Source of the DNA: Candidatus Falkowbacteria bacterium
Lineage (GTDB): Bacteria > Patescibacteriota > Patescibacteriia > Patescibacteriales > UBA12075
DNA: 64,000 bases
NCBI GenBank assembly: GCA_003514005.1
Contig: DOSJ01000004.1
Coordinates: forward strand, 165,533-229,532
Direction of reading: 5' to 3'
Part shown: positions 4,396-47,794 of the stretch, one piece after another
How positions within the stretch are numbered: the stretch's first letter is position 1
Layout of the letters: each line of letters begins with the position of its first letter
Notes under the pieces: model-generated
Database searches by the model: none
Seen by the model: the letters and a program-made list of their open reading frames with translations, nothing else
What the model was told of the DNA's origin: nothing
Translations under genes and position numbers: made by a program

Positions 4396-4567
4396 GAAGT
4401 TTGAAGTAAGAAGTTAGAAGTAAGAAGTTTTTAGTGAGAGGTAAAAAGTCTAAAATATGCTAAGCACTTGAAAAATGTTTCTTTTTATACTAAAGTAACA
4501 GATAGTTAAAGTATGAAAAAGATAATTTTTTTTATATTTCTAACTTCTAACTTCTTACTTCTAACTT
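4394..4567. repeat. intergenic word hairpin (AGAAGT words)
   Basis: AAGAAGTTTGAAGTAAGAAGTTAGAAGTAAGAAGT (4394-4428) faces TTCTAACTTCTAACTTCTTACTTCTAACTT (4538-4567). Confidence 0.75.
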
Positions 4568-4969: not shown

Positions 4970-5118
4970 TTGTCATTCCCGACACTCTTAGCCCCGCAGG
5001 GAAATAATATTAAATGATCGGGAATCTAGGGGTAAAAGATTCAATTATTTATGACAGCAGTGGTTTAATGATAAATTAAGCTTTTACACCTGGATTCCCG
5101 CCTTCGCGGGAATGACAA
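4970..5118. repeat. MITE-like element, family 1 subtype A2 (left arm carries a 35-nt insert CACTC..CCCCGCAGGG..ATTAAATGA)
   Basis: TTGTCATTCCCGA[insert]TCGGGAATC ... GGATTCCCGCCTTCGCGGGAATGACAA. Near-identical copies lie at 6283 and 13890. Confidence 0.75.
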
Positions 5119-5180: not shown

Positions 5181-6218
5181 ATGGAAAAAGAATTACAACA
5201 AATTAAAGAAACAATATTGGAAGAGGTTAAAAAAATAAAGGATTCGCAGGTTTTGCGGGATTTGGAGCTTAAATATTTGGGTCGCAAAGGCGAGTTGACT
5301 ACGATATTGCGCGGGCTTACCAAGCTGGATGGCGAGGACAAGAAAAAGGTTGGAGCGCTTGCCAATACTATTAAAAATGAAATTTATACGGTTTTTAAAG
5401 ACCTGAAGTCTTCGATCGAAGAAAAAGGCAGGGAAGAGTTTGTTGATGTAACTTTGCCAGGAAAAAAGAGCGAGCGCGGACACCTGCATCCGATTACTTT
5501 GATTCAGAATGAGTTGGAAGATGTTTTTTCTTCCATGGGATTTATGGTTTTGGATGGACCGGAACTTGAGAGCGAATATTATAATTTTGAGGCTTTGAAC
5601 ATACCCGCGCATCATCCGGCGCGTGATATGCAGGATACTTTTTATATTCAGGGTAATGAAACGGAAAAAGGCGCAGGTGGAAAAAGCGATTTGGTTATGC
5701 GTACACATACTTCGCCGGTGCAGGTGCGGGCGATGCAAAAATACGGCGCTCCTTTGCGCTGTGTCGCACCTGGCCGCGTATATCGCTGTGAGGCGACCGA
5801 TGCCGTGCATGAACATACCTTTGACCAGATGGAAGGACTAATGATTGATGAAAATATTTCTATCAGCAATATGATAGCAGTAATGAAAGAGCTTCTAAAA
5901 GGCGTCTTTGGTAGAGAAATGGAAGTTCGCGTTCGGCCTGGGTATTTTCCTTTTGTTGAGCCCGGCATTGAGCTGGATATCAAATGCACGATTTGCGGCG
6001 GCGCCAAATGCCCAAGCTGTAAGCATTCGGGCTGGCTCGAAATTTTACCAGCCGGCATGGTGCATCCAAATGTTTTAAGGCATGGCGGTATTGATCCTGA
6101 TAAATATTCCGGCTTTGCCTTTGGACTCGGTCTGACCAGGCTTGCCATGATGAAATACGGCATCAACGACATCCGCCTCTTTAACGGCGGCGATTTAAGG
6201 TTTTTAAAACAATTTTAA
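5181..6218 (+). CDS. pheS: phenylalanine--tRNA ligase alpha subunit
   Basis: Class II motifs, including FDQMEGL and GFAFGLGLTRLAMMKYGI. Confidence 0.95.
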   Translation: MEKELQQIKETILEEVKKIKDSQVLRDLELKYLGRKGELTTILRGLTKLDGEDKKKVGALANTIKNEIYTVFKDLKSSIEEKGREEFVDVTLPGKKSERGHLHPITLIQNELEDVFSSMGFMVLDGPELESEYYNFEALNIPAHHPARDMQDTFYIQGNETEKGAGGKSDLVMRTHTSPVQVRAMQKYGAPLRCVAPGRVYRCEATDAVHEHTFDQMEGLMIDENISISNMIAVMKELLKGVFGREMEVRVRPGYFPFVEPGIELDIKCTICGGAKCPSCKHSGWLEILPAGMVHPNVLRHGGIDPDKYSGFAFGLGLTRLAMMKYGINDIRLFNGGDLRFLKQF

Positions 6219-6224
6219 GGCTGA

Positions 6225-6572
6225 GTTAAAAGTAAAAAGTTATAAAGTAAGGTTCTTTAGATAATTTTATGTGTAAAATATTTTGTCATTCCCGACACTC
6301 CATAGCCCCGCAGGGAATAGATATTAAATGATCGGGAATCTCGGTGTTAAATTAATTAAATAAATATGTGATAAAATGGTTTTATAACAAATATGCAGTA
6401 TAAAATACTTTGTTATTGTTAAACCAAGATTCCCGCCTGCGCGGGAATGACAAATAAAAGGAATGTGTTTAAAAATTTACCACAGAAATGTCTAAAGAAC
6501 CTAAAGTAAATATAACAATTACTACATAAAAACTTTTAACTTTATAAATTTTAATACTTTATAACTTTAAAC
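6225..6572. repeat. outer intergenic word hairpin that encloses a family-1 MITE (nested architecture)
   Basis: GTTAAAAGTAAAAAGTTATAAAGTAAGGTTCTTTAGAT (6225-6262) is complementary to ATGTCTAAAGAACCTAAAGTAAATATAAC...CTTTATAACTTTAAAC (6488-6572). The MITE at 6283-6453 sits inside. Confidence 0.65.
6283..6453. repeat. MITE-like element, family 1 subtype A2
   Basis: Same termini and insert as 4970-5118. The right arm is GATTCCCGCCTGCGCGGGAATGACAA. Confidence 0.75.
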
Positions 6573-6579
6573 TAAACAT

Positions 6580-9069: not shown

Positions 9070-9208
9070 TTGTCATTCCCGCGAAGGCGGGAATCTTGGT
9101 GAGAAAAGCAACTCATTATACTAAAAGTTAATGATTTTAAAAACGTTTTTTGTCTAGGAAATTTAAATTATTTTTTAACCAAGATTCCCGCCTTCGCGGG
9201 AATGACAA
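9070..9208. repeat. MITE-like element, family 1 subtype A1
   Basis: TTGTCATTCCCGCGAAGGCGGGAATC ... GATTCCCGCCTTCGCGGGAATGACAA. The ATG at 9202 of the ORF track lies inside the right arm. Confidence 0.75.
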
Positions 9209-17886: not shown

Positions 17887-17933
17887 AACTTAAGTATAAA
17901 AATTTAATTTTTTTGTTTAATTTGTTTGTTTTT

Positions 17934-17971
17934 GTTATTTTCGTGTTTTTGGACAGAGACACGAAAATAAC
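17934..17971. repeat. short intergenic hairpin (GTTATTTTCGTGT / ACACGAAAATAAC)
   Basis: A 13-bp perfect inverted repeat with a 12-nt loop. Confidence 0.6.
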
Positions 17972-18184
17972 GAAAATATACGAATTGAACGAAAAAGGTG
18001 CTTTTAGTTAAAAAACTGTTTGAATTACAAAATTTCCCAAATATTTCATTAGGAAAACTGTTTTTAGTATAGCATTCTTCGTAAAAAAAGCAATGCTTGA
18101 TTTTTTTTTGGAATAGTGTTATTCTGATATTATTAGAAATAATAAAATAAGAGATAATATAGCTAATAATCAGGCAATATTTTA

Positions 18185-18872: not shown

Positions 18873-20240
18873 ATGCCAAGAATTGCTAAAGAAAAAATAA
18901 ATAAAGAGCCGGTTCGCGCGAAAAAGATCGTTCGATTTTCTCGATTACGGGGAATGAAAGATGTTCTATTCGATGAATATCGTTATTGGGATTTGATCAC
19001 TAAAAAGGCCACGGATTTGGCAGATGTATATGATTTTCGCCGGATTGATACGCCGATTTTGGAAAAACTTGACCTATACGAACGCTCAACCGGATCCGAT
19101 ACCGATGTTGTTTCCAAAGAGATGTATTCTTTTATCGACAAGAGCGAAGAAAAAGTCGCTTTGCGTCCGGAAGCTACGCCGGGAATCGTGCGTTCATATA
19201 TTGAGCACGGTTTATTCAATCAACCCCAGCCGATCAAGACATTTTGGCTCGGTCCTTTGTTCCGGCATGAAAAGCCGCAATCCGGACGAACGCGCCAGCA
19301 CAGCCAGATAAATTTTGACGTATTCGGCGAAGCCGGTCCGATAACCGATGCTCAGCTGATCTTGATTACATATAATTTTTATACCGAATTACAGATAGAC
19401 GTTCAGGTTCAGATAAACAGCATCGGCTGTCCGGATTGCCGCAAGGAATATATCAATAAGCTTACCGAATACTATAAAGAAAGAGGAAAACGTTCAAGGC
19501 TTTGCAATGATTGCAAAAGGCGCTTTGTAAAGAATCCTTTGCGACTTTTGGATTGCAAGGAAAAAGACTGCATCGAAGTGCGTGAAGACGCGCCACAGAT
19601 TGTGGATTTCTTGTGCGAAGGCTGTCGCGAGCATTTTATCAAAGTACTCGAATATTTGGACGAACTTGGCATCTCTTACAATTTGAATCCATTTTTGGTC
19701 AGGGGCCTGGATTATTACACGCGTACGGTGTTTGAGATTGTCGCTGTTGATGACGAGGGCGAAAAAGACGAGAATGGACAACGACGCCAGTCTTCCTTGG
19801 GTGGCGGCGGACGTTATGATAATCTGATCGAGATGCTTGGCGGACGACCGACACCGGCTTGCGGTTTTGGCTTGGGCGTTGAGCGGGCGATTTTGAAGAT
19901 CAAAGAAAAGAATATCCCATTAAAAGAAGATAAAAAAGATTTTATATTTTTGGCGCAATTAGGCGAGCAAGCGCGCCTAAAGGCGGTAACCTTGTTCGAA
20001 GAAATGCGCCGCGCCGGCTATCGCGTCCGCCAAGCCTTTACCAAAGACAGCCTGAAAGCCCAGCTTGAAATCGCTGATCGCATCGGCGCGAAGTACAGCC
20101 TGATCCTCGGACAAAAAGAGCTTTTGGACGGCACGATAATCATCCGCGACATGGAATCCGGCACGCAAGAAGTGATTGACCAGAAGAAGATATATGTTGA
20201 AATCAATAAGCGGTTGGAGATGGATAAGGGGGGTAATTAA
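18873..20240 (+). CDS. hisS: histidine--tRNA ligase (canonical copy)
   Basis: Class II motifs FRHEKPQSGRTRQHSQ and GGGGRYDNL, a Cys-rich insertion domain and an HGTP anticodon-binding domain. Confidence 0.95.
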   Translation: MPRIAKEKINKEPVRAKKIVRFSRLRGMKDVLFDEYRYWDLITKKATDLADVYDFRRIDTPILEKLDLYERSTGSDTDVVSKEMYSFIDKSEEKVALRPEATPGIVRSYIEHGLFNQPQPIKTFWLGPLFRHEKPQSGRTRQHSQINFDVFGEAGPITDAQLILITYNFYTELQIDVQVQINSIGCPDCRKEYINKLTEYYKERGKRSRLCNDCKRRFVKNPLRLLDCKEKDCIEVREDAPQIVDFLCEGCREHFIKVLEYLDELGISYNLNPFLVRGLDYYTRTVFEIVAVDDEGEKDENGQRRQSSLGGGGRYDNLIEMLGGRPTPACGFGLGVERAILKIKEKNIPLKEDKKDFIFLAQLGEQARLKAVTLFEEMRRAGYRVRQAFTKDSLKAQLEIADRIGAKYSLILGQKELLDGTIIIRDMESGTQEVIDQKKIYVEINKRLEMDKGGN

Positions 20241-20266
20241 TTTGAAGTTTGGTTTTTGTAAAATAA

Positions 20267-20327
20267 TTAAGTCCTAATTTCTAAATTATAAATCCAAAAA
20301 ATTATAATTTAGAACTTAGGACTTAGA
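20267..20327. repeat. intergenic word hairpin (TTAGAAAT / ATTTCTAA words)
   Basis: TTAAGTCCTAATTTCTAAATTATAA faces TTATAATTTAGAACTTAGGACTTAG. Confidence 0.7.
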
Positions 20328-20417
20328 AATTAATTATTTTTCTAAATCAAATTTTATAATACTAATTAGTAATTTACTGAAAATAACAGTATTAAATCTA
20401 GAAAGGTAGGTGTTATT

Positions 20418-20654
20418 ATGGTAGAATTTAAAAGAAAGAAAGGCGAAAACTTTGAAAGTTTTTTGCGTCGTTTTAATAAGACTTTGATAAAAAGCCGAAA
20501 ACTGAACGAAGTTCGCAAACGCAAATATATTACCCACAAAAAAAACAAATCCCAACAAAAAGAATATGCTTTGATCAGTCGTCAAATGCGCGAGAAAAAA
20601 GAGTATTTGCGCAAGACCGGGAAATTGAAAGAAGAGACTAAGGGGAGATGGTAG
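20418..20654 (+). CDS. rpsU: 30S ribosomal protein bS21
   Basis: A 78-aa basic protein. E.F..FLRRFNK....S.KL.EVRKRKY fits the S21 pattern. AGGTAGGTG RBS upstream. Confidence 0.85.
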   Translation: MVEFKRKKGENFESFLRRFNKTLIKSRKLNEVRKRKYITHKKNKSQQKEYALISRQMREKKEYLRKTGKLKEETKGRW

Positions 20655-20656
20655 GG

Positions 20657-20725
20657 TAGTTAATTAGGTAATTAGTTAATTAGGTATTAACTATAAACTC
20701 CTAATCACTAATTAACTAATCACTA
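20657..20725. repeat. intergenic word hairpin (TAATTAG words)
   Basis: TAGTTAATTAGGTAATTAGTTAATTAGG faces CCTAATCACTAATTAACTAATCACTA. Confidence 0.7.
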
Positions 20726-20729
20726 ATAT

Positions 20730-21185
20730 ATGTTAAACGAAAAAATAGCTAATGATCTAAAACAAGCGATGATTGCAAAAGACGCGTTTACGCTGTCCGT
20801 TCTTCGCATGCTAAAGACCGCGATTAAAAACAAGATGATTGCGCTAGGAGACGGCGGTAAGAATGAACTCGCGGATGAGCAGATTGTTGAAATCGTGTCG
20901 GCGGAGATAAAAAAACGCAAGGATTCGATTGAGGCTTTTTTGTCCGGCGGACGGCAGGATTTGGCTGACAAAGAAAAGACCGAGATTGAAGTTTTGGCAA
21001 AGTATCAACCCGAGCAGATGAGCGAAGAAGAGCTTAGGAAAATCATTACTGAAACTATTTCCGCTTTGGGACAAGTTACGGCAAATGATTTTGGCAAAAT
21101 AATGGGCGCCTTGATGCCAAAAGTCAAAGGCAAAGCGGACGGCAACTTGGTTAACAAAATAGTCAAAGAAATTTTAGCAAAATAG
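20730..21185 (+). CDS. GatB/YqeY domain-containing protein
   Basis: MLNEKIANDLKQAMIAKD...LSVLRMLKTAIKN... is typical YqeY. 151 aa. Confidence 0.8.
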   Translation: MLNEKIANDLKQAMIAKDAFTLSVLRMLKTAIKNKMIALGDGGKNELADEQIVEIVSAEIKKRKDSIEAFLSGGRQDLADKEKTEIEVLAKYQPEQMSEEELRKIITETISALGQVTANDFGKIMGALMPKVKGKADGNLVNKIVKEILAK

Positions 21186-21200
21186 CTTATATAAAAAAAA

Positions 21201-21240
21201 TCACCTCACCCTTCGCGAAGGGTGGGGTGATTTTTTGTTT
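21201..21240 (+). terminator. intrinsic terminator
   Basis: TCACCTCACCC-TTCGCGAA-GGGTGGGGTGA followed by TTTTTTGTTTTTT. Confidence 0.8.
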
Positions 21241-23122: not shown

Positions 23123-24536
23123 ATGATAATTGATAAAGAAAAAAAAGAAACAGTTAAACCAGAGCGTCCTGGTGGGTTTTTGGATTATTTACCAGGTGAT
23201 TTTTTGGCTAGAGAAAAAATGATAAATACTATATCAAGCGTTTTTCGATCTTTTGGATATAATCCTATCGAGACTCCACGAGTAGAATTTTTGAAAACAT
23301 TATCAGGCGAAGAAAGCGATACTGGAAAAAACATTTTTCGGATTTTAAGCAGTAATGATTCTGAGCCATTGGCAATGCCATTTGATCATACAGTCCCTTT
23401 TGCCAGATTGCTTGCGGCTAATCCCTATAATTCAAAAGATAGAAGTGGTATACGATTGCCTTGGCGCAGAATGGTTGTTGGACCAGTATTTCGTGGTGAA
23501 AAACCTCAGGCAGGAAGATATAGACAATTTTATCAATTTGATGCGGATATTGCCGGAACTGATTCAATGATGGCTGACGCAGAAATTGTTGCATTGATTT
23601 TCAATACGCTTTCAGCATTGGGAGTAAAAAAATTTTTGATTCGAATAAATAATAGAAAGATATTAAACGGTTTAGCAGAACTTGTTGAAATAAAAACACG
23701 AGATAAAGTTTCAAAAGAAGACATCACCAAAGAACTAATGAGAATCCTTGATAAGGTTGATAAAATCGGTCTTGAAGGTATAGTCAGCGAATTGCAGAAA
23801 AAACCAGAATCAGATTTTGACCCTGCTCCTTTTTTGTCAAATGAAGCAGTCTTAAAAGTTCGGTCTTATCTTGATATTCAGGGCAGTAATACTGAACGCC
23901 TTAATAAAGCCAAGAATGTTTTTAGTGGAATAAAAATTGCTGAAGAAGGAATAGTAGAGCTTGAAAAAATAATTTCGTTTCTTGCACCCTTGGAAGTACC
24001 AGCAGAATTTGTTAGTATTGATTTTAGTATTGCCAGAGGCTTAGATTATTATACTGGTCCTGTTATGGAAACAATTCTTCTTGACGCCAAGAGATTTGGA
24101 AGTATTTTTAGTGGCGGAAGGAAGATACGATGAGCTTGTAAGACGTTTTACCGGAGAAGCACTACCGGCAGTAGGAGCTTCTGTTGGCGTAGACAGAATG
24201 TTTGCAGCTTTGAATCATTTAGGACTTATTGATAACAAAAATCAGTCAGTAGCAGACGTGCTAGTACTTCGACTCGCGACCGATAAAGATGAAAAATATC
24301 TTGAAATAGCAAATATTATTAGAAAAAGTGGCAAGAATGTTGAGGTTTGTCTTTTTTCAGATACTACTTTTAAAAATCAATTTAGTTTTGCCCTTGGAAG
24401 TGGAGTCAGATATGTTGTGATTTGCGGGGAGGATGAGTTTGCAAAAAGTGAAATTGCAGTCAAGGATATGCAAAAAAGAATACAAGAAACTATTCCTTAT
24501 AATAAAATTGAAGAGTATTTTGATTGTTTGGAATAA
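23123..24536 (+). pseudogene. second, divergent histidyl-tRNA synthetase paralogue interrupted by a 1-nt frameshift
   Basis: ORFs 23123-24133 and 24081-24536 are the catalytic and anticodon-binding parts. Deleting one A at 24118/24119 (GGCGGAAGGAAGATAC) restores SGGGRYDELV, the HisRS motif-3 region. Confidence 0.8.
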
Positions 24537-27733: not shown

Positions 27734-29875
<2,142 letters not shown>

Positions 29876-30542: not shown

Positions 30543-32012
30543 ATGGATTTAAATAAATTTACAATAAAACAAGCACAAGAAAAACTTGAGGCGGGTGAGA
30601 TTACTTCTGTTGATTTGACTCGGGCTTGTTTGGAGCGGATTGGGGCTATTGATGATAGAATCAAGGCTTGTTTGACTGTGTGTGAGAATGAGGCAATATG
30701 TGCGGCGAAGGAGGCAGATTTGCGGCGGAAGAATGGTGAGATTGGGGCGCTTTTGGGTATTCCGTATTTGGCAAAAGATAATATTATGACGCGGGGAGTG
30801 CGGACTACGGCTTCTTCAAAAATTTTGGAAAATTATATTGCGCCTTATGATGCGACAATTATCAAGAAATTAAAATCAGCGGGTGCGGTTTTGCTAGGCA
30901 AGACCAATCTGGATGAATTTGCGCATGGCGCTTCGACAGAGAATAGTGCGTTTGGTCCGTCACACAATCCTTGGGATTTGTCGCGCGTACCGGGCGGTTC
31001 TTCGGGTGGTTCGGCTGCGGCAGTGGCTGCTGACATGTGTTTGTTTGCGCTTGGTACGGATACGGGCGGTTCGATTCGTTGTCCTGCCAGTTTTTGCGGA
31101 ATTAGCGGATGCAAACCAACCTATGGTTTGGCATCGCGGTTTGGTTTAATCGCTATGACATCGTCAACCGATGTTCCTGGGCCATTGACCAAAACCGTGG
31201 AGGATGCGGAAATTGTTTTGCGGGTGATTGCAGGAGTGGATGGGAACGATGCGACGACGGTGGATGCACACAGGGATAGATCGCGACCTGTCCATGCCGC
31301 GGATGTCCAAACGACGATGACAGGTAAAAAAATTGGTATCCCCAAAGAATATTTTGGTGAAGGTTTGGAGGCAGGCGTTAAAAAATTGGTGATGGAAGCC
31401 GTGGAATATTATAAAAAACAAGGCGCGGAAATAATTGATGTTAGTTTACCACACAGTAAATATGGTGTTGGTGTCTATTATATTATTACCCCTTCGGAGC
31501 TAAGCTCCAATCTAGCGCGTCATGATGGAATCCGTTATGGTTTTAGCGACAACAGTGGCAATGATTTACTTAGTATATATAAGAATAGCCGCGGTAAAGG
31601 TTTTGGTCCGGAAGCAAAAAGAAGAATTATGCTTGGCACCTATGCTTTGTCTGCCGGATATTTTGACGCATATTATTTAAAGGCGCAAAGAGTGCGTACG
31701 ATTATCAAAAATGAGCTTGATCAGGTTTTGGAAAAAGTTGATTGCATAATTACACCGACCAGTCCGCATGTTGCCTTTAAAATCGGCGAACAGTCAAATG
31801 ACCCTTTGAAAATGTATTTGGAAGATGTTTATGTCACCGGTGCGTCTTTGGCCGGTCTACCTGCTATGTCTATTCCGGTTGGATTTGACAATGGCCTACC
31901 GGTTGGAATGCAATTGATTGGCAAGCGTTTTGCCGAGGATACGCTTTTTGCGATGGGTCGGGCATATCAAGACGGAACGGATTTTCATAAGCGGAGAGCG
32001 GAGATTTTATAA
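30543..32012 (+). CDS. gatA: Glu-tRNA(Gln) amidotransferase subunit A
   Basis: Amidase signature GGSSGGSAAAVAA and GTDTGGSIR. Confidence 0.95.
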   Translation: MDLNKFTIKQAQEKLEAGEITSVDLTRACLERIGAIDDRIKACLTVCENEAICAAKEADLRRKNGEIGALLGIPYLAKDNIMTRGVRTTASSKILENYIAPYDATIIKKLKSAGAVLLGKTNLDEFAHGASTENSAFGPSHNPWDLSRVPGGSSGGSAAAVAADMCLFALGTDTGGSIRCPASFCGISGCKPTYGLASRFGLIAMTSSTDVPGPLTKTVEDAEIVLRVIAGVDGNDATTVDAHRDRSRPVHAADVQTTMTGKKIGIPKEYFGEGLEAGVKKLVMEAVEYYKKQGAEIIDVSLPHSKYGVGVYYIITPSELSSNLARHDGIRYGFSDNSGNDLLSIYKNSRGKGFGPEAKRRIMLGTYALSAGYFDAYYLKAQRVRTIIKNELDQVLEKVDCIITPTSPHVAFKIGEQSNDPLKMYLEDVYVTGASLAGLPAMSIPVGFDNGLPVGMQLIGKRFAEDTLFAMGRAYQDGTDFHKRRAEIL

Positions 32013-32101
32013 ATTTTTAAATTACAATTACTAATGTCTAAATTTTTATTTGTTTTTATATTTAGAAATTAGACATTATAATTTAGAAATTATTTTTTAG
32101 T

Positions 32102-32884: not shown

Positions 32885-32973
32885 GAAGTAAAAAGTAGGA
32901 AGTAAGAAGTTAGAAGTAAGAAATAATAATTAATCACATTTTTTCTTACTTCTAACTTCTTACTTCTAACTTT
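32885..32973. repeat. intergenic word hairpin (AGAAGT words) abutting tRNA-Ser
   Basis: GAAGTAAAAAGTAGGAAGTAAGAAGTTAGAAGTAAGAAA faces TTTCTTACTTCTAACTTCTTACTTCTAACTTTT. Confidence 0.75.
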
Positions 32974-32976
32974 TTA

Positions 32977-33063
32977 GGAGAGTTCACCTAGAGGCCTATG
33001 GTACTCGCTTGGAAAGCGAGCGGGTGAAAGCCCACGAGAGTTCGAATCTCTCACTCTCCGCCA
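32977..33063 (+). tRNA. tRNA-Ser (anticodon GGA) with encoded CCA
   Basis: Acceptor GGAGAGT/ACTCTCC, anticodon arm CTCGC-TTGGAAA-GCGAG, long variable arm CGGGTGAAAGCCCAC, T arm GAGAG-TTCGAAT-CTCTC, then G-CCA. Confidence 0.9.
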
Positions 33064-35514: not shown

Positions 35515-35597
35515 TATATAAATTAAATAAACAAAATAGCGGCTCAAGCAGCCCATAGCCTTTTTAGGTTTTGGGCTGTTTTTTTAGAGAAAAAAAT

Positions 35598-38500
35598 ATG
35601 ATTACCATTACTCTAAGGACAAAACAAATATTAATTTTGATTGTAGTTTTGGCGCTTGTTTTGTCTGCGTTTCCGGCACGCATAACTTATGCTGCTGGAG
35701 TTATGTATTTGCCTGGTGAAACTATATCGCCAGCTTGCGGGCCGACAGAAAGCGGTTGCGGTGTGCGTGCATCTGTTTACACTGCCGATACTATGACTGA
35801 CGGTGCGCTTCTCTTTGCTACATCATCGACATGGTCGTTGCTGTCCGCTGGTGCGGATGGCCAAGTTTTAAAGTTATCCGGTGGGTTGCCTTCATGGGGC
35901 AACGATGATGGCGGCACGAGCTATACAGCCGGTTCAGGACTTTCTCTCGGTGGTTCAATTTTTTCTTTGGATCGGACGGCAACCGGTACTTGGAGCGGAC
36001 TTCAAACTTTTGGTGGCGGAATTTCTTTGGGGGGCAATACATACACTAATCTTGCTGGTACTGGTCTTAGTTTTTCCGGCGGTGCTTTATCAACAGCCCT
36101 TGGAATCACGATTGAATCATCAGAAATTACCGATGAGACTATCGTGTCTGGAGATATCGCTGACGGCACAATAACTTTTGGAAAAATCGCTTCCAATAGT
36201 TGCGGCGCCAATGAAATCATGAAATGGAACGGCTCGGCTTGGGCTTGTTCCACAGATAATAATAATACTTACACCGCTAACACTGGCTTGACTCTTTCTT
36301 CCGGCGCTTTTTCTTTGGATATAAATGGATTATCGGCAATAAGTTCAGTTGATGCTACTGACACTCTCGCCGTCTATACTGCAAGCGGTCTGAAAAAAAT
36401 CACTCGCAGTGATATGTTTAGTGATGTTTTGGGAGCGATGAATTATCGCGGGACTTGGAATGCAACCACGAATTATCCTGATTTATCATCGTATTGTGTT
36501 TCAGGCACCAAGGGGCATTATTATGTTGTTGGAACAAGCGGAACAACAAACTTAAGCGGTATTGCAAGTTGGTCAGTTAATGACTGGGCGGTATGTAATG
36601 GTACAGCTTGGGAAAAAGTGCAGACAACCAACGCTGTCACAAGTGTTTTTGGACGTACGGGTGCGGTTATCGCCTCGGGCGGGGATTATAATGCTTCGCA
36701 AATTACAAATTCTGCAAGCGGAAATATCGCGGCAATAACAGTTCAAAATGCGCTCAATGAATTAGATAATGAAAAATTATCTACTACTCTAAACAGTGGT
36801 TTAATATTTATTGGAAATAGTTCTAATCAAGCTACTGGGATTGCTCTTTCAGGAGATGCAACTATAAATAATGCAGGTGTTATAACCATTGGCGCTGATA
36901 AAGTAACTTTGGGAACTGATACCATGGGCAATTATGTAGCAACTCTGGCTGATAGTGGAGCGGGACTTTTTACAATAGCTAATTCTGGAATGGAAAATGC
37001 AGGAGTAACGCTCTCTTTAGTAGATGATATTTTAAATTTTACAAAATTTGCGGATGCCCTGACATTAGATAATAGCACCAGCATCACTCTTGGCGGAAAT
37101 GATTTAACGACTGCTATTACGAGTACGGGTTTACCAAAATTTATCAGAACAGCTGCTGGGCAATGGATGAATTTTGCTGATGGTACGGATAGTTTTGGAA
37201 TTTATAATATTTCAGGTACTCCCGAAGCATTAATTGCAGCCGACAAAGGTTCTTTGGCAGTAGATACAAACAGCGGCGCTCTTTACATTAAAACTACAGA
37301 TTCTCTCAATACTGGTTGGTCGGCTTTTGGTTTGGCAAGTTCCGGTATTACTTCTCTCAATGGCCTAACTGGATCAACCCAAACTTTTGCTACGAGCACG
37401 AGCGGAACAGATTTTGCTATAACATCTGATGGGACTACTCACACCTTTAGTATTCCTGACGCATCTGCCACCGCTAGAGGACTTATTACTACAGGAACCC
37501 AAGCTATTGTCGGAGCTAAAACTTTAACTTCAAATTTAACGCTATCAGGGTCTGCGGCGAACATAGTTCTTGGTTCTAATTATCTCTCTGGCGATGGCGA
37601 TGATGAAGGTATTTATATTAATTCTTCAGGCAACATCGGCATCGGAACCACTATAACTACAAGCAAACTTACGATTAAAACTACAACCACGGGAGATGGC
37701 ATCCAACTTTATGGTGACGGTAACACCTCGCCATTTTTTAAGATTGGATCAAATTCAAACTACTCGGCAAATGCACGTAACTATGGTTTTGCGGTAGACC
37801 GTGGTCTTTGGGGGGACTTTAGTATATTCCAATCAAGCGTCGCGCAGGGTGATCCATATACCACTGGTACTGCGGTGCTCACTATTAATAAAGATGGTCA
37901 CTTCAGCGTCGGCGCCAGTACTATCGCGGGCACCCTCGGTTTGACAGGAGATTTGGCAGTGAATACGGATAAATTTAATATCAATGCCACTTCTGGAAAC
38001 ACCACAGTAGGAGGTACATTGACCGCTCAGGGCGCGGTGGCCTACAAAAAAGGCTCTGATTTTTCCACGACCGAAACATCAATAAATGTAGATTTTGGAA
38101 ACACTTCCCTTGTTCGTCTCACCGGCGCGAGCGCTCAGACAATCGATACGATTGCAGGTGGTACCGATGGAAAGGTTTTGACTATTGTTAATGCCGGAGC
38201 CAACTCCGCAACAATTAAAGATAGCTCGACAGCTTCTGGTACGGTGGCCAACAAAATCTATACCGGAACGGGTGCTGATATGACTTTGGCGGCAGATGCA
38301 TCACTCCTTCTCATTTATGATTCTGGCGCATCGCGTTGGAGAGTAGTTGGAGGGTCAGGAAGTGGAGGTTTGGGGGGAAGCTCCATTCAAACAATTTCTT
38401 CTACCGGGAATATTTCTGGTTGGGGTTATACAGTTAAAGCTGATGGAACCTCGGCATCATTCACGACAACTCTCCCAACCGCTTCGGGAAATTCTGGAAA

Positions 38501-41441
38501 ATTAATTGAAATCGTGAAAACCGATAATACAGCTAATGCGCTTTCCATTTCTCCGTATGGAAGTGAAACAATTAATGGATCAACTAATAAAATTTATCTT
38601 TATTCGCAAGGTGATTCGGTCGTTATTCGTTCCGACGGTTCAAATTCCTATATCGTTTCCGACAATCGTTCGAGCGTGGGGCAGAGTAAGGGGTATATGT
38701 TCCTTGTTGGTGGCATATCTTCCGTAAGTAACGGCACACAACTTGCTTATACAACAGTGCGTGGAAGCTACGGCACCGATATTGCTCAAAGTGGCAATGG
38801 TGTGCTTTTAAAGGCAGGTAAAACCTATAAATTAACGGCATCCGTTTCGATTTCGAACAGTGCTAATGCTCAGTTAGGTATAGAATTTTACAACACTACA
38901 GCAGGCGTTACTATCTCTTCATCCGGCAACAATGCGTTGAAGCTCGCTTCTAATGCGAGTAATAACTACTCGGATGCGGGGGATCTGAGCGCGGTATTTA
39001 CTCCGACGGTTGATTCTGTTGTCGTTATTCGTGCTATCAATTCAACAGCGGGTGTCAATGCTTCTGCGGACAACTTTGATATCGAAGTTATCTCTACTTC
39101 CCAGAATGTGGTGAATACGGTGGAGTATATTTACGCCAAGAATTCTGCCGGACAAACACTTACGGGAGGGAGCCCACTTACCTTTAATACAACTGTTTCC
39201 GGCAACATCAACAAAAGTAACAACAATACTTTTACCCTCAAAGCTGGGAAAACTTATCGTCTTGAAGGTACGGTTGGTGCTTCGACCGCAAATGCCACTG
39301 CTGTTTTCTTCCAGTGGCGCGATACGACAAATAACACCTACATTGGTAATGTAGCTTCCCGAATACCAGCCGCACATGCTTCTACAGCAGGAGAAGAAAG
39401 TGGTAATGCGATTGCTATATATACACCAACTACCGATGTTACGGTTCAACTTTGGTCGCATACCACACAAGGAAATTTATGGGGTCAAGGCGCGACCGAT
39501 AATGCCGATCAATATTCTTGGATTCAGATCACTCAAATCGGCTCAACGGCTTCGACCGGCGTGGCTTTGAACTCGCTTATTGCCGCCACGGCTTCGGGTG
39601 CGCTGGATAATACAAATTACGGACAGACATGGGATTGGAGTACTGCCACTACACAAACAGGTCTCACTATGACCGGCAACGCGCTTACGACTGGCGGGCT
39701 TTTGAGTCTCACCTCCAGCAATGCTTCTCTGAACTCGACCAATGGCCTTCTCTATGTGGCCAACACCGGTGCCTCGACGAACGGAATCGTCGCTCGCATT
39801 CAATCTAATTCTACTGTCGGATCGGGACTGACAGTTTTGGCAAACGGCCATGTTGGTATCGGCACAACGACACCGATAGCGGCGTTGCATGTATACGGGA
39901 CAGATAAGCAAATAATGATCGATAGGTCTACCGCCACCTCGACAAGATATGGACAACTGCTTTTTGCAGACGGAGGAATCGAAAATTGGTCAATTGGACA
40001 AAGAGTGGGCGATCAAAAATTCCATATTTACAAAACTTTGGCGACAGCGGGAGAGGTATTGACGATTGATACTTCCGGCAACATCGGCATCGGGACGACG
40101 AGTCCTGGAACGACATTAGACGTAAATGGCACCGGACGTTTTGTTTCGCCAGATGTTGGTACGACAGGAGGAATTGTACTTCGCGATAATGTAAGTAATG
40201 ACGGGAATTATCTTCAATTCGTGAATAATGCCGGTACTTCCCAATATTCTTATATCCAGGGATTAAGTTCTGGCGGATTGGCATTTATGGGTGGAAACGT
40301 CGGAATCGGTACCACTGACCCATCATTTGCACTTTCAGTTACGGATGCTGCTAACAGTGAATATGTCACTCAACTAATTAACACAGGCACTACCCCTCAT
40401 GGCATGCAAATCCAACTCACTTCCGCCGTCAGTGGCAGTATTTTTAATGGATTTTTTAATTTTTCAAATTTAATTGGATCAATTACTTACAATGGGACTG
40501 GAGTAAATTATAATCAAACTTCTGACGAAAGGCTCAAGGAAAACATAGTTGACACACACTTCGGTGTTCTTGATTTGATGAAAGTTAATGTCCGTGATTT
40601 TGAATATAAAAATGATTCAAATGGTCAAACTCTAAATGGTTTTATTGCCCAAGAATTACAGAAAATTTATCCTGATGCGGTTACCGTTGGTACTGACGAG
40701 GTTGATGATAATGGTAACTTAATTCATCCGTGGATGGTTGATTATGGTCGATTAACCCCGCTTATTGTCAAATCTATTCAAGACCAACAGACGCAAATTG
40801 AAGCTCTCAAGACAGGTATGGCGGTATCTATGGAAGGATTAGATGGTTTGGTTTTGTCTGGTGGCCTCACAATTGCCGGCGAAGTGGATATGGGTAAAGA
40901 CACAGTTGGTGAGGCAGTTATAAAAGCTGGCGATACTTCTGTGTTAGTTGTCTTTGAAAATAAATATACTAATCAACCAGTTATTACAATTACTAAAATG
41001 ACTGCCGGTGTCTTGTCTGACTACTATGTTAGCGATATAACTGTAAAAGGGTTCAAGATTAACATTGACCCGGCGCAAACCGATAAAGATATTTATTTTA
41101 GTTGGCATGCTTTTGGTTCAAATAGTGGAGTCAGATTATTTAGTGATGGGTTAAAAGAAAATATTGAAGCTATTGATCCGGATGTAACAACTTCGCCGGA
41201 AGTAACGACAGAAGCTCCTCCTGTTCAATCTGGTGATAATCCTATAGTAGGTGATAGCTCTCCAGTGGAGCCAGAAAATCCAGAAATGCCAGCGGATACA
41301 GAGGAATCTATTGAACCGGAAAACCCAGTTGAGTTTGAAACACTTGTGACGCCGGTTGTAGAAAATAATGCCCCAACTGAACCGGAAGCTCCCGCCGAAC
41401 AATCTATCGAACCGGTTACAAGTGAAGATGTGTCGCAATAA
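35598..41441 (+). CDS. giant (~1947 aa) tail-fibre-like surface protein with a peptidase S74 intramolecular chaperone domain, an H-type lectin domain and an acidic P/E-rich tail
   Basis: N-terminal signal/TM. Repeated G(N/H)(I/V)GIGTT.P...L.V fibre motifs. S74 signature TSDERLKENIVD...GFIAQELQKIYPDAV...VDYGRL (Ser codon at 40521). Then VVFENKYTNQPVITIT...VKGFKINI...FSWHAFG. Start moved to ATG 35598. Confidence 0.85.
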   Translation: MITITLRTKQILILIVVLALVLSAFPARITYAAGVMYLPGETISPACGPTESGCGVRASVYTADTMTDGALLFATSSTWSLLSAGADGQVLKLSGGLPSWGNDDGGTSYTAGSGLSLGGSIFSLDRTATGTWSGLQTFGGGISLGGNTYTNLAGTGLSFSGGALSTALGITIESSEITDETIVSGDIADGTITFGKIASNSCGANEIMKWNGSAWACSTDNNNTYTANTGLTLSSGAFSLDINGLSAISSVDATDTLAVYTASGLKKITRSDMFSDVLGAMNYRGTWNATTNYPDLSSYCVSGTKGHYYVVGTSGTTNLSGIASWSVNDWAVCNGTAWEKVQTTNAVTSVFGRTGAVIASGGDYNASQITNSASGNIAAITVQNALNELDNEKLSTTLNSGLIFIGNSSNQATGIALSGDATINNAGVITIGADKVTLGTDTMGNYVATLADSGAGLFTIANSGMENAGVTLSLVDDILNFTKFADALTLDNSTSITLGGNDLTTAITSTGLPKFIRTAAGQWMNFADGTDSFGIYNISGTPEALIAADKGSLAVDTNSGALYIKTTDSLNTGWSAFGLASSGITSLNGLTGSTQTFATSTSGTDFAITSDGTTHTFSIPDASATARGLITTGTQAIVGAKTLTSNLTLSGSAANIVLGSNYLSGDGDDEGIYINSSGNIGIGTTITTSKLTIKTTTTGDGIQLYGDGNTSPFFKIGSNSNYSANARNYGFAVDRGLWGDFSIFQSSVAQGDPYTTGTAVLTINKDGHFSVGASTIAGTLGLTGDLAVNTDKFNINATSGNTTVGGTLTAQGAVAYKKGSDFSTTETSINVDFGNTSLVRLTGASAQTIDTIAGGTDGKVLTIVNAGANSATIKDSSTASGTVANKIYTGTGADMTLAADASLLLIYDSGASRWRVVGGSGSGGLGGSSIQTISSTGNISGWGYTVKADGTSASFTTTLPTASGNSGKLIEIVKTDNTANALSISPYGSETINGSTNKIYLYSQGDSVVIRSDGSNSYIVSDNRSSVGQSKGYMFLVGGISSVSNGTQLAYTTVRGSYGTDIAQSGNGVLLKAGKTYKLTASVSISNSANAQLGIEFYNTTAGVTISSSGNNALKLASNASNNYSDAGDLSAVFTPTVDSVVVIRAINSTAGVNASADNFDIEVISTSQNVVNTVEYIYAKNSAGQTLTGGSPLTFNTTVSGNINKSNNNTFTLKAGKTYRLEGTVGASTANATAVFFQWRDTTNNTYIGNVASRIPAAHASTAGEESGNAIAIYTPTTDVTVQLWSHTTQGNLWGQGATDNADQYSWIQITQIGSTASTGVALNSLIAATASGALDNTNYGQTWDWSTATTQTGLTMTGNALTTGGLLSLTSSNASLNSTNGLLYVANTGASTNGIVARIQSNSTVGSGLTVLANGHVGIGTTTPIAALHVYGTDKQIMIDRSTATSTRYGQLLFADGGIENWSIGQRVGDQKFHIYKTLATAGEVLTIDTSGNIGIGTTSPGTTLDVNGTGRFVSPDVGTTGGIVLRDNVSNDGNYLQFVNNAGTSQYSYIQGLSSGGLAFMGGNVGIGTTDPSFALSVTDAANSEYVTQLINTGTTPHGMQIQLTSAVSGSIFNGFFNFSNLIGSITYNGTGVNYNQTSDERLKENIVDTHFGVLDLMKVNVRDFEYKNDSNGQTLNGFIAQELQKIYPDAVTVGTDEVDDNGNLIHPWMVDYGRLTPLIVKSIQDQQTQIEALKTGMAVSMEGLDGLVLSGGLTIAGEVDMGKDTVGEAVIKAGDTSVLVVFENKYTNQPVITITKMTAGVLSDYYVSDITVKGFKINIDPAQTDKDIYFSWHAFGSNSGVRLFSDGLKENIEAIDPDVTTSPEVTTEAPPVQSGDNPIVGDSSPVEPENPEMPADTEESIEPENPVEFETLVTPVVENNAPTEPEAPAEQSIEPVTSEDVSQ

Positions 41442-43602: not shown

Positions 43603-43627
43603 AATTTATAAAATAATCATTAGCAAG

Positions 43628-43657
43628 AAACAGCTTGAAAACAAGCTGTTTTTGTTT
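43628..43657 (+). terminator. intrinsic terminator of the fibre operon
   Basis: AAACAGCTTG-AAAA-CAAGCTGTTT followed by TTGTTTT. Confidence 0.8.
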
Positions 43658-43726: not shown

Positions 43727-44890
43727 ATGAAATTATTAATTTGTACGCAAAAAGTAGATAAAAATGACGATCTTTTGGGGTTTTTTCATGCTTGGATCGC
43801 GGAGTTTGCGCAGAATTGCGAAGGCGTTACCGTGGTTTGTTTGTTTCGGGGAGAGGTGGATTTGCCTGAGAATGTTAGGGTTTTGTCGTTGGGAAAAGAA
43901 AGTGGGGATTTTCGATTTTCGATTTTCGATTTTCGATTTATTTTAAAATTTAAATATTTAATTAATTTTTTTAAATATATTTGGCAGGAGCGGAAGAATT
44001 ATGATACTGTGTTTGTGCATATGAATTCGATTTATGTTTTGCTTGGGGGATTGTTTTGGAAGGCGTGGGGAAAAAAGATTGGGCTTTGGTATGCGCATGG
44101 GCATGCGCCTTGGCAGCTCTTGGTTGCGGAAAAAATGGTTGATGTTGTGTTTACGTCTACGGCGAGCGGATGTAGGTTGAAGTCTGGGAAGATTCGGATT
44201 GTGGGGCAGGGAATAGACGTTGGAAATTTCCGATTTCCGATTTCCGATTTCCGATTTAGGGAAATACAAAAATCGAAAATCGAAAACCCGAAAAGTCCCG
44301 TTTGGACATCGGGTCCTTTACGGGATCGAAAATCGAAAATATCCCTGATTACTGTCGGCAGAATTTCGCCTGTAAAAAATCTTGAAACTTTGATTAATGC
44401 TGTTGAATTATTGGTAAAAAAGGGGATTGATGTTAAGCTGGATATTGTTGGGGCTATTGGATTAGTGGAACAGAAAGCATATTATGACTTTTTGTCGAAA
44501 ATGATAAATGAGAAAGGCTTGGCGAAAAATATTCAATTTGTCGGCTCTGTGCCGAATAAAGATATTGTTGAGTATTTGCAAGCGGCTGATATCTTTGTCA
44601 GCGCCAGTCAGACCGGCAGTTTGGACAAAACTTTTCTCGAGGCAATGGCCTGCGGTTTACCTGTAATCGGCTGTAATGTGGCGTTGGATGCTGTTTTGGG
44701 AGAATATAAAGATAGGCTATTTTATAGTGCGGGAGATTATTTGGCCTTGAGCGATAAAATCGAGAACGTGCTTGGTTTAAGCGAAGCAGAGTATGCGAAG
44801 ATGGCGGAGGATTTAAGAGGGGTGGTGGTGAGGGAGCATGGGTTGGGTGAGTTTGTGAAGAAAATTTTAAAAATATCCAATACTCAATAA
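43727..44890 (+). CDS. GT4-family glycosyltransferase carrying two in-frame repeat insertions
   Basis: The C-terminal half has ...ITVGRISPVKNL...ASQTGSLDKTFLEAMACGLPVIG (the E(x7)E region). Confidence 0.8.
   Translation: MKLLICTQKVDKNDDLLGFFHAWIAEFAQNCEGVTVVCLFRGEVDLPENVRVLSLGKESGDFRFSIFDFRFILKFKYLINFFKYIWQERKNYDTVFVHMNSIYVLLGGLFWKAWGKKIGLWYAHGHAPWQLLVAEKMVDVVFTSTASGCRLKSGKIRIVGQGIDVGNFRFPISDFRFREIQKSKIENPKSPVWTSGPLRDRKSKISLITVGRISPVKNLETLINAVELLVKKGIDVKLDIVGAIGLVEQKAYYDFLSKMINEKGLAKNIQFVGSVPNKDIVEYLQAADIFVSASQTGSLDKTFLEAMACGLPVIGCNVALDAVLGEYKDRLFYSAGDYLALSDKIENVLGLSEAEYAKMAEDLRGVVVREHGLGEFVKKILKISNTQ
43907..43939. repeat. (GATTTTC)n word tract in frame inside the GT4 gene
   Basis: GATTTTCGATTTTCGATTTTCGATTTTCGATTT encodes DFRFSIFDFRF. 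Confidence 0.8.
44225..44340. repeat. composite TTCCGATT / AATCGAAA palindromic word block plus a GC hairpin, in frame inside the GT4 gene
   Basis: (ATTTCCG)x4 ... AAAATCGAAAATCGAAAA ... CCCGAAAAGTCCCG-TTTGGACAT-CGGGTCCTTTACGGG ... ATCGAAAATCGAAAAT. It encodes [38 protein letters not shown] in the inter-domain linker. Confidence 0.8.
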
Positions 44891-44975
44891 TCAATATCCA
44901 ATAAATATCAAAGTATATAATATTCAATTTTTGGATTGATTATTTTATATTGAATGGATATTGAGTATTGAATAT
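44878..44975. repeat. ATTCAATA-word hairpin, copy 1 of a ~100-bp direct repeat pair flanking the asnB-like gene
   Basis: Roughly 85% identical by eye to 46851-46950. Shared core: AATATTCAATTTTTGGATTG..TATTTTATATTGAATGGATATTG.GTATTGA. Confidence 0.75.
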
Positions 44976-44982
44976 TAATAAT

Positions 44983-46839: not shown

Positions 46840-46850
46840 TATACAATTTT

Positions 46851-46950
46851 CAATACTCAATATTCAATGAATATCCAAGTATTTAATATTCAATTTTTGG
46901 ATTGGCTATATTTTATATTGAATGGATATTGTGTATTGATTATTGAATAT
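46851..46950. repeat. ATTCAATA-word hairpin, copy 2 of the direct repeat pair flanking the asnB-like gene
   Basis: See 44878-44975. Confidence 0.75.
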
Positions 46951-46961
46951 TATATTCTTGT

Positions 46962-47687: not shown

Positions 47688-47693
47688 TGCTTG

Positions 47694-47785
47694 GCAGGGA
47701 TTTATAAGATTTATAAGATTTTTTAGAAAGGTATTATATCTTATTCCTATTATAAAAAAATCATATAAATCTTATAAATTCCTGC
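47694..47785. repeat. intergenic word hairpin (TTATAAGAT words)
   Basis: GCAGGGATTTATAAGATTTATAAGATT faces AATCATATAAATCTTATAAATTCCTGC. Confidence 0.75.
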
Positions 47786-47794
47786 AAATTTTTT

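Follow-up and report, generated by a model that had tools for sequence, protein, structure and literature searches.

Heptamer word hairpins in the gene spacers of a Candidatus Falkowbacteria scaffold: structure, turnover and possible origin

What are the long hairpins of short repeated words that lie between genes in this Candidatus Falkowbacteria DNA, and what put them there? The question is raised by the pheS-pheT spacer (6225-6572; pheS stop codon 6216-6218, pheT ATG 6580) of a 64,000-nucleotide (nt) stretch, referred to below as the window, for which a preliminary description made from the letters alone had reported a hairpin enclosing a complete miniature inverted-repeat transposable element (MITE). 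Our analysis bears this out, and we lean, without great confidence, toward reading such hairpins as fast-turnover filler DNA produced by slippage and template switching, with nested MITEs, and not as a designed architecture; that hairpin-forming filler is typical of a whole Patescibacteria (Parcubacteria/Falkowbacteria-like) clade is part of this reading and is held with the same slight preference. The DNA comes from a metagenome scaffold of 244 kb (ANAN16-1 scaffold_114), which is present likewise in GCA_003453605.1 and GCA_003508365.1. The window is 86% coding, its proteins are most similar to Patescibacteria proteins of the Parcubacteria/Falkowbacteria type, and its genes include the housekeeping genes pheS, pheT, topA, dprA, pth, engA, hisS, tyrS, ligA, gatC and gatA as well as glycosylation genes.

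The pheS-pheT spacer proved to be a nest of three layers, in which two stems, the outer one made of words, surround a 171-nt MITE; the layout is as follows (tandem repeats called by Tandem Repeats Finder, TRF):

6218-6248: outer 5' arm of AAAGT(A/T)AA-type words, starting on the last base of the pheS stop codon; TRF 6224-6250, period 7
6250-6277: inner stem, 5' arm, pairing with 6476-6502 over 25 bp
6283-6453: MITE of family 1, with ends TTGTCATTCCCG...CGGGAATGACAA, nested inside the hairpin
6476-6502: inner stem, 3' arm
6539-6573: outer 3' arm of AACTTTAT words, ending 6 nt before the pheT ATG; TRF 6531-6573

The inner 5' arm is homologous to the left flank (13861-13889) of another copy of the same MITE, the match running from 6254-6351 to 13861-13959 at 86% identity.

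Word hairpins and their seven-nucleotide period

The hairpins of the window are real and far above chance expectation. We ran RNAfold on whole spacers of at least 40 nt plus 10 nt of flank against 60 dinucleotide-preserving shuffles; the window has 46 gene boundaries and 38 spacers of that length, 22 of which gave z<-3, many of them below -6, with the strongest fold (z=-14.9) in the spacer 12112-12291. Length-matched coding segments gave no such fold (0/39, median z 0), and spacers of unrelated genomes gave 7 in 39, mainly between convergent pairs. The significant folds comprise ~11 word hairpins, ~8 MITEs or other palindromic elements and ~3 ordinary terminators with a GC stem and a T-run (43603 (43622-43656), 21186 (21195-21236) and 49904), and the boundaries without a significant fold include tiny spacers. 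The preliminary description had spoken of a systematic organisation at almost every gene boundary, which overstates the case for word hairpins (~11/46) and for significant folds of any kind (22/46) alike. Elsewhere on the scaffold, an operon with spacers of 4-25 nt and zero hairpins takes up the 10 kb immediately downstream, and the 9 kb on the upstream side have canonical terminators and AAGGAG ribosome-binding sites.

The length of the stems, their position over stop and start codons and the frequent absence of T-runs, all remarked on before, held up on measurement. Stems run to 20-56 bp with arms 81-95% complementary, and in the word hairpins the fraction of G+C pairs is 0.03-0.27 and the interior reaches up to 290 nt. 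In word hairpins the median distance of the arms is ~1 nt to the stop codon and ~8 nt to the start codon, both of which they overlap or abut. Most window hairpins have no T-run after them, and they occur between co-directional and convergent genes, as had been described, and also in one divergent spacer (17909-17996), which carries a 42-bp AT-rich hairpin.

The repeat unit is not a word of arbitrary length between 6 and 9 nt; a period of 7 (and 14) dominates. Self-match at lag 7 amounted to 158 nt in the window spacers versus 0.8 in shuffles, with lag 14 next, lags 8-9 minor and every other lag at zero. A TopA scan of metagenomes yielded 80 loci of 84-53% identity, most of which keep dprA-topA synteny; in the 289 spacers of these relatives lag 7 gave 772 nt versus 6.7 in shuffles, and the only other signals were at lags 8 and 14. 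The 7-nt unit thus predominates among unit lengths, and the tandem arrays are also called by TRF. A fold with z<-3 was found in 128 of the 289 relatives' spacers (44%), and a clear heptamer array in 28 only, so word hairpins are one component of a broader hairpin richness. Arms are 0.81-0.95 complementary in register and a shift of 7 nt lowers the value in all but ligA (0.90 vs 0.91), from which it follows that the order of unit variants is mirrored between the arms.

At every coordinate where inverted word tracts had been listed we recovered tandem arrays paired with an inverted copy. The word hairpins and arrays of the window's spacers, other than that of pheS-pheT, are:

1295-1433: AATAATC/GATTATT arrays, occupying the whole spacer from stop (1288) to start (1441)
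4397-4567: AGAAGT(A/T) arrays with a 107-nt interior; arms 1 nt past the stop and 5 nt before the ATG
9491-9540: array of the AGAAGTA heptamer, beginning within the stop codon of an open reading frame (ORF) of 99 aa
12097-12298, minus strand: dprA-topA hairpin of ATTACAA/ATTACAAAT, 53 bp, z=-14.9
16314-16380: hairpin of the TTAGAAAT family, directly 3' of the LytR-gene stop
20245-20354: hairpin of the TTAGAAAT family, directly 3' of the hisS stop
20651-20731: TAGGTAAT/CTAATCA hairpin, ending on the start codon at 20730
32012-32091: hairpin of the TTAGAAAT family between gatA and a dsbA-like gene, followed by a T-run; relatives have 28-36 nt there
32889-32976: AGAAGTA hairpin with 39-nt arms, 92% complementary, ending 1 nt before tRNA-Ser (32977)
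44879-44976: AATAATC/ATTCAATA hairpin; the final 4 codons and the stop codon of a glycosyltransferase gene lie in its 5' arm
46837-46952: second AATAATC/ATTCAATA copy, across an asnB-like gene from the first; identity 87%, loop included
47691-47788: GATTTATAA hairpin of period 9, followed by T6 and then an ATG

The stem at 12097-12298 includes the dprA stop codon and the topA ATG together with 2-3 further codons, and several genes of the window terminate at the first in-frame stop within an array.

An all-against-all comparison of the spacers sorted the words into families, each word recurring at 3-4 loci, and the idea that each is specific to its locus did not survive. AATAATC/ATTCAATA occurs at 1295, 44879 and 46837; AGAAGTA at 4397, 9491 and 32889, with arms in common and interiors not; and TTAGAAAT at 16314, 20245, 32012 and 58006, its core being found also in another species (L011) and always directly 3' of a stop codon. 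At least six unrelated, mostly AT-rich words are present in 64 kb, none with G-tracts. Most word families have arms or words in common, differ in their interiors and lack defined termini; three families have more than the repeat unit in common (the ATTCAATA pair, a 147-nt palindromic element and the TTAGAAAT core). Dispersed families have 2-5 copies at 70-90% identity, with no single conserved unit.

In-frame copies and turnover between relatives

The same arrays stand in frame inside protein-coding genes of the window:

28042-28103, plus strand: ATTTCCG/CGGAAAT heptamer palindrome in ligA, in frame, just before the KxDG active-site motif
43907-43939, plus strand: (GATTTTC)x4.7 array in the glycosyltransferase gene, in frame
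44226-44340, plus strand: (ATTTCCG)x4.6 and inverted (AAAATCG) arrays in the glycosyltransferase gene, an in-frame hairpin

The ligA palindrome is in perfect register and by alignment is an insertion relative to solved LigA structures. The loop before the KxDG adenylation motif is length-variable across 60 Patescibacteria homologues (P0001-P0060), with inserts of 0-45 aa, and, as judged from the alignment, it forms a hot spot where repeats insert in frame across Patescibacteria. One insert, KKLEVRSK, matches the AGAAGTT word; another, PPLLNRRGG, would read as a translated GC-rich palindrome, judging from the peptide alone; a further insert, SLKLRGAS...FAKAARG, resembles a translated palindrome or MITE fragment.

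Glycosyltransferase orthologues in two relatives, whose proteins are 68-70% identical, carry other heptamers at both sites. At site 1 the word is GATTTTC in the window and CAATTTT and GGAATCA in the relatives; at site 2 the window has ATTTCCG with inverted AAAATCG and the relatives AAATCTA/AAATCAC and AAATTCA x5, in both cases as a single array without inverted partner where the window has a hairpin. Different heptamers, and a single array as against a hairpin, at the same orthologous site point to evolution in situ plus the addition of an inverted copy. The words that survive in coding sequence, ATTTTCG/CGAAAAT and ATTTCCG/CGGAAAT, are free of stops in three frames on both strands, and intergenic words (AATAATC, AGAAGTA, TTAGAAA, and TTGTAAT, the complement of ATTACAA) contain them.

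Whether the word or only the hairpin is conserved between species, a matter the preliminary description had raised, could be read at the dprA-topA junction, where many relatives have no spacer to speak of. Among ~60 relatives this spacer is bimodal, being -4 to 35 nt long in 21 and 39-656 nt in ~30, of which 18 gave z<-3. These hairpins too are flush between stop and ATG, with a 7-nt word that is different in every lineage: ATTACAA in the window, and AAGTGAC, AAAAGTT, GAGTCCA, CTCAAAA, AAAGTCN, AAATCAN, CGTTCTAAT and AATTTTG in relatives, besides one relative with TTTCTAAT and nested GC palindromes and another with a tandem CAATTTA array and no partner. At this junction, then, the hairpin property and the 7-nt period recur, the word never does, and the hairpin is optional.

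Gain, loss and replacement were seen at other junctions as well. The ligA-gatC-gatA-dsbA spacers measure 170, 206 and 89 nt in the window, all with hairpins, and 12-46 nt in three relatives, the exception being the gatC-gatA spacer of relative L013 (184 nt). Gene order from LytR to topA is shared with the closest TopA relative (84%), the genes being 73-80% identical in nucleotides; zero spacers can be aligned, and between dprA and topA that relative has another hairpin with another MITE inside it. A scan of genome contigs with PheT gave seven loci and one useful relative (L004). On a contig whose PheS is 93% identical, the last pheS codons are the same and are followed by complete divergence into another hairpin and MITE; a relative at 81% PheS identity has an ACATGCA array and a MITE in a hairpin downstream of pheS; and in one at 75%, pheS and pheT are 9 nt apart. 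Upstream of pheS, the 93% relative carries (L096 100-215) a ~90-nt near-perfect palindrome of TATATCCGCG/CGCGGATATA words, which occupies the place of a family-1 MITE in the window, a complete replacement between very close relatives.

The succession of dsbA-like gene, hairpin and tRNA-Ser is found in three species (window 32889-33063, L011 9631-9800, L013 5272-5450), and the word of that hairpin differs in each, being AGAAGTA, TTTCTAAAT and ACAAGCA-like. The asparagine-synthase-like (asnB-like) gene at 44968-46839 sits between the glycosyltransferase and a methyltransferase gene, which are 7 nt apart in L011 and have a different gene at their junction in L013; the two direct, 87%-identical hairpins around it may hint at recombination or insertion points.

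Mutational origin and its rivals

Our argument that the hairpins are filler of mutational origin draws on the 7-nt periodicity, the in-frame coding copies, the gain, loss and replacement between relatives, the word turnover at orthologous sites and the mirror-copy arms. It draws too on heptamer arrays of about equal density in co-directional (0.66 per kb), convergent (0.47) and divergent (0.42) spacers, and on the negative outcome of the searches for T-runs, loop promoters, G-U bias and transposases given below. Replication slippage would make and homogenise tandem 7-nt arrays, often seeded at or in a stop codon, and an intrastrand or interstrand template switch (fold-back copying) would then rewrite the array in inverted form, which would leave the arms as in-register mirror copies. 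The hairpins would be flush with stop and start because the ancestral spacers were only 0-35 nt long and the hairpin is the entire spacer. Conventional MITEs, of the TTGTCATTCCCG family and others, would insert into or beside hairpins, giving the nest at 6218-6573. Selection would do no more than filter: nearly any word may survive in spacers, and within genes the survivors would be in-frame arrays whose word and complement are stop-free, at permissive surface loops. That slippage and template switching were the actual steps of mutation, and that the outcome is neutral, we infer; a slippage or fold-back process had been one of several candidates listed at the outset and is the one that the comparative data favour. 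Some of the hairpins at gene 3' ends have probably been reused as transcript-end structures.

Several observations weigh against this origin. Recurrence of the dprA-topA hairpin at the same junction in many lineages could reflect selection for a hairpin there. Gradual slippage explains the wholesale spacer swap at 93% protein identity less readily than would ready-made elements that are inserted and deleted, the near-identical hairpin pair flanking the inserted asnB-like gene looks like copying or mobility, and the recurrence of word families across loci, with the TTAGAAAT core in L011, is more natural under dispersal or a shared function than under slippage at each place independently. The share of relatives' spacers with z<-3 declines from convergent (64%) through co-directional (43%) to divergent (18%), a gradient that implies some link to gene 3' ends or an avoidance of promoter regions. 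Finally, the three assemblies of the same contig are identical over 7 kb and so are uninformative on slippage.

An unlikely reading, though one that we take seriously, is that the hairpins are selected RNA structures in operons without Shine-Dalgarno (SD) sites, serving re-initiation, coupling or bypass by a terminating ribosome that would melt the stem base, where upstream stop and downstream start are side by side, or else the separation and stabilisation of cistrons through RNase III cuts; any sequence would serve, and hence only the hairpin property would be conserved. In phage T7 early mRNA, RNase III hairpins lie between cistrons, and termination-reinitiation coupling is known. The likeness to that system is a long, near-perfect duplex (>=~20 bp) between co-directional cistrons with stop and start at the stem base, which is a structural prerequisite only; the difference is that the structures here are evolutionarily optional and occur also in non-operon contexts and inside genes. 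An SD-like motif precedes just 1 of 48 window genes, arms are flush with stop and start (in relatives, the median distance of AT-rich stems is 5 nt to the stop and 15 nt to the start that follows), and the hairpins stand where relatives have overlapping or adjacent, presumably coupled genes (dprA-topA, ligA-gatC-gatA, pheS-pheT). Promoters are few in the loops, so both arms should be co-transcribed; a hairpin recurs at one junction with words that are unrelated; and hairpins are depleted in divergent spacers. Flushness is, however, equally expected of a hairpin growing in a ~5-nt spacer, and many close relatives manage with spacers of 0-12 nt. The same structures also occur inside coding sequences, where such a role is impossible, as well as before a tRNA gene and, as the 42-bp AT-rich hairpin, in the divergent spacer 17909-17996. 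Mismatches in sense-strand stems gave G:T 17 versus A:C 10, which is not a significant G-U over A-C bias and is confounded by a G>C skew. 

Slightly less likely still is that the word hairpins are non-autonomous mobile elements of MITE or REPIN type, mobilised in trans by a transposase from another part of the genome and preferring sites after stops or in palindromes. Dispersed families exist, and the ATTCAATA pair, the 147-nt element and the TTAGAAAT core have more than the unit in common; hairpins are present or absent at orthologous sites and are replaced wholesale at 93% protein identity; and genuine MITEs coexist with them and nest in them. Against mobility, we found no target-site duplications for word hairpins, most families have only arms or words in common, and the words differ in every lineage at one junction. 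Local evolution is suggested by orthologous in-frame arrays of different words and by a codon position that holds a single array in relatives and a hairpin in the window. No Pfam match to a transposase, integrase, RAYT or Y1 transposase was obtained among the proteins of the window and its 20 kb flanks (~84 kb), and we know of no role for a 7-nt periodicity in transposase recognition. The lack of alignable spacers in the closest relatives limits this comparison, since empty sites of MITEs and word hairpins cannot be aligned there and insertion points and target duplications are consequently unreadable.

We consider it doubtful, and give it a lower place again, that sequence-agnostic intercistronic hairpins are a selected device of SD-less Patescibacteria that sets the stop opposite the start, with heptamer slippage and template switching rebuilding the stems. 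Terminating ribosomes might then re-initiate across an insert of 100-350 nt, in analogy to shunting, or RNase III might separate the cistrons, and this would account for the recurrence of nothing but the hairpin property at dprA-topA and for arms flush with both codons.

Highly improbable, in our view, is that these are AT-rich intrinsic terminators or protectors of mRNA 3' ends that are long because the genome is AT-rich. The orientation gradient of the folds speaks for it, as does the hairpin that precedes tRNA-Ser after the dsbA-like gene in all three species with different words; in addition, a T-run comes after two of the three TTAGAAAT-family hairpins in the window whose 3' arm is clear, and after the L011 copy. 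Yet the same contig has ordinary terminators with GC-rich stems and T-runs where needed, loops of 100-290 nt and stems that reach into the next start codon do not suit a terminator, and the hairpins lie within what are compact operons in relatives. Among the relatives' co-directional spacers a T-run (>=6 T in the next 8 nt) followed 5 of 51 hairpins, which equals the mirrored A-run control (5/51), and a consensus terminator scan was not enriched (28 found vs 22.2 expected). With AT-rich stems of 20-56 bp and interiors up to 290 nt, we reject the canonical intrinsic terminator for word hairpins, in agreement with the earlier remark that they are not simply of that kind.

Barely credible is a role of the arrays as protein-binding sites (for a translational regulator, a nucleoid protein or DNA uptake) or as cruciform signals for replication or recombination, since at least six unrelated words in 64 kb and lineage-specific words are incompatible with a single sequence-specific binder or uptake signal, arrays lie also within coding regions and no candidate protein was identified, even though, in a genome lacking SD sites, arrays immediately precede start codons, as do the TAACTGA repeats of Beggiatoaceae, for which a translational regulator has been proposed (PMC4679880), and though two copies of one hairpin flank a gene absent from relatives.

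Other identities were tried and set aside. Sigma-70-like promoters (>=10/12, sense direction) were found in only 2 of 15 long loops, and a promoter-in-loop insulator model was dropped on this ground. An integron attC or cassette array is rejected, as the window has no integrase and the flanked genes are housekeeping ones (pheST, topA, dprA, ligA, gatCA, hisS) whose synteny is conserved across 80 relatives. TIGR- or CRISPR-like arrays do not fit, since TRF shows no regularly spaced ~36-nt or other long-period repeat, and a single word of the uptake-signal kind is ruled out by the many words. REP or REPIN sequences with RAYT were discarded because no conserved inverted doublet of ~20-25 nt and, among window proteins, no Y1 transposase match was found; REP doublets are mobilised by RAYT transposases (PMC3116915). 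The gene rnc is not in the window.

Is the organisation new? It had been thought undescribed, a view that needs narrowing. Heptamer short tandemly repeated repetitive (STRR) sequences are reported from heterocystous cyanobacteria (Mazel 1990), and Rickettsia palindromic elements (RPEs) are reported to lie in frame in protein genes (Ogata 2000). With RPEs the likeness is one of functional analogy, in-frame palindromic DNA that may be tolerated in essential genes at surface-exposed positions (ligA, glycosyltransferase); RPEs, however, are defined families of 100-150 bp, and the arrays here are 60-115 nt of heptamers evolving in place. With STRRs and long simple sequence repeats (LSSRs) the word hairpins share dominant tandem 7-nt units, a mostly intergenic location, a patchy distribution across phyla, and length and sequence that vary between relatives; they differ in having many AT-rich words per genome and not one to three G-rich ones, and in arrays that are mostly inverted pairs, fill the spacer from stop to start and occur also in frame in housekeeping genes. 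According to the summary of Mrazek 2007 in PMC4679880, heptanucleotides are the dominant class of long SSRs in repeat-rich bacteria, and this excess is attributed there and in PMC4692102 to polymerase slippage.

A close counterpart is found in Xanthomonas, where arrays of the GGGAATC heptamer, paired in inverted orientation and capable of forming stem-loops or cruciforms, occupy 70-75 sites per genome (Rehm et al. 2015, PMC4692102), and where the single or paired type is mostly preserved between species while length and sequence vary (PMC4692102). There, as here, two arrays of the same heptamer lie close together on opposite strands; there, however, one G-rich, G-quadruplex-capable word is used, whereas here a diversity of AT-rich words is used, each specific to its lineage, coding sequences directly adjoin the arms and the hairpins have MITEs nested within them. 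Template switching is known to create perfect hairpins in one step and later to re-homogenise their arms (Monttinen and Loytynoja 2022, PMC8794818), and such a process would account, without selection, for mirror-copy arms and apparent compensatory change; the cases described are, however, of short stems, located in rRNA and further genes in eukaryotes and bacteria, and not of array stems of 25-56 bp across the spacers of a genome, and the mechanism here would be the same by inference. Compared with MITEs and REPINs, Correia elements for example, they are likewise short, intergenic, hairpin-forming, dispersed and nested, but have no fixed termini or detected target duplication and a low copy number per family, and their arms are low-complexity 7-nt repeats whose word changes at orthologous sites. 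Full-text searches of the Patescibacteria literature found nothing comparable. What sets the present case apart is the host clade, the multiplicity and turnover of AT-rich words, the flush geometry without SD sites, the presence of both intergenic and in-frame copies and the nesting of MITEs.

If the mutational reading is true, the clade is a natural laboratory for the de novo origin of hairpins, its streamlined genomes of ~1 Mb still accumulate non-coding DNA, and such filler enters protein loops and makes new peptide segments; a practical consequence is that ORFs are lengthened or cut short by gene callers at the arrays, whose arms contain stop and start codons. If instead the hairpins are selected RNAs, they represent a new route to translational coupling or cistron separation without SD sites.

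Dispersed elements and neighbouring genes

Besides the copy in the pheS-pheT spacer, the window holds four further family-1 MITEs and a number of other palindromic elements, all of them among the ~8 significant folds of this kind:

478-614: MITE of family 1, short subfamily, with a 9-bp direct repeat TAAAATAAT on both sides
4970-5118: MITE of family 1, upstream of pheS
9070-9208: MITE of family 1, downstream of pheT
13890-14042: MITE of family 1, in the pth-dprA spacer
53176-53345: another MITE-like element, with ends TTTGTCATCTCGA...TCGAGATGACAAA
54918-55064: palindromic dispersed element of 147 nt, not a word hairpin
56883-57029: second copy of the 147-nt palindromic element, 83-85% identity over 214 nt, with one compensatory change of T:A to C:G

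The TTGTCATTCCCG family, the 147-nt element and the element at 53176-53345 are ordinary members of the MITE/REPIN kind. Fixed terminal inverted repeats are present in the TTGTCATTCCCG family (5 copies) and absent from word hairpins, and among family-1 copies a direct repeat that may be a target-site duplication was seen for none other than 478-614. When MITE copies were examined for placement inside flanking stems, 4 of 17 gave p<=0.02, with an offset limit that left out the pheS-pheT copy; nesting of MITEs within flanking stems across loci is therefore suggestive.

A short dispersed sequence with the core GGCCGAAAATAAATAAT/CTTCGACATATTTTATA occurs at 14055-14098, 16262-16332 and 60140-60210, its copies being 75-90% identical. 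The non-coding block 13717-13806, in a spacer that is otherwise unalignable, is 89% identical to L016 4149-4236, above the level of the flanking genes (73-80%). The block folds as a stem CTGTCTAAGAG...CTCCTAGACAG, a terminator-like hairpin (13820-13841) adjoins it, and its minus strand reads AAGGAGG followed by an ATG-initiated short ORF. It matched no Rfam family, and from its sequence could be an unannotated small RNA (sRNA) or small protein gene.

Rfam at gathering thresholds recognised two tRNAs only in the window, so known RNA families were rejected as an identity for the hairpins. At E<0.1 hairpins match plant microRNA (miRNA) precursor models well below threshold, a generic hairpin similarity; the sub-threshold matches at 478-614, 9070-9208, 17911-17993 and 32908-32971 are to plant or animal miRNA precursors and to Wolbachia and Francisella sRNA models (E to 1e-6). 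Hairpin-rich spacers can thus mimic miRNA or sRNA matches, and false non-coding RNA annotation is likely. At 55076-55211 (plus strand) there is a cobalamin riboswitch candidate, located between the 147-nt palindromic element and a prenyltransferase-like/DUF4430 gene (55270-56862); its 31.2 bits (E=3.9e-4) fall just short of the gathering score, 31.5, and it is probably a real B12 riboswitch overlooked by annotation at the gathering threshold.

Three further observations concern neighbouring genes. Just upstream of the window (L015 2255-5598) lies a cluster of small genes without Pfam matches and with AAGGAG sites, TTGACA-type promoters and GC-rich terminators, which could represent either an island of foreign or phage origin or a gene set with high expression and different signals. 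In addition to the intact hisS (18873-20240), a second HisS-like gene is split into the overlapping ORFs 23123-24133 (catalytic core) and 24081-24536 (anticodon-binding domain); this could be a pseudogene with a frameshift, a case of programmed frameshifting, or else a paralogue of the HisZ kind. Lastly, 35571-41441 encodes a protein of 1956 aa whose sole clear domain is a Peptidase_S74 intramolecular chaperone of the endosialidase/tail-spike type, and which may be a large surface protein or a phage-derived fibre protein.

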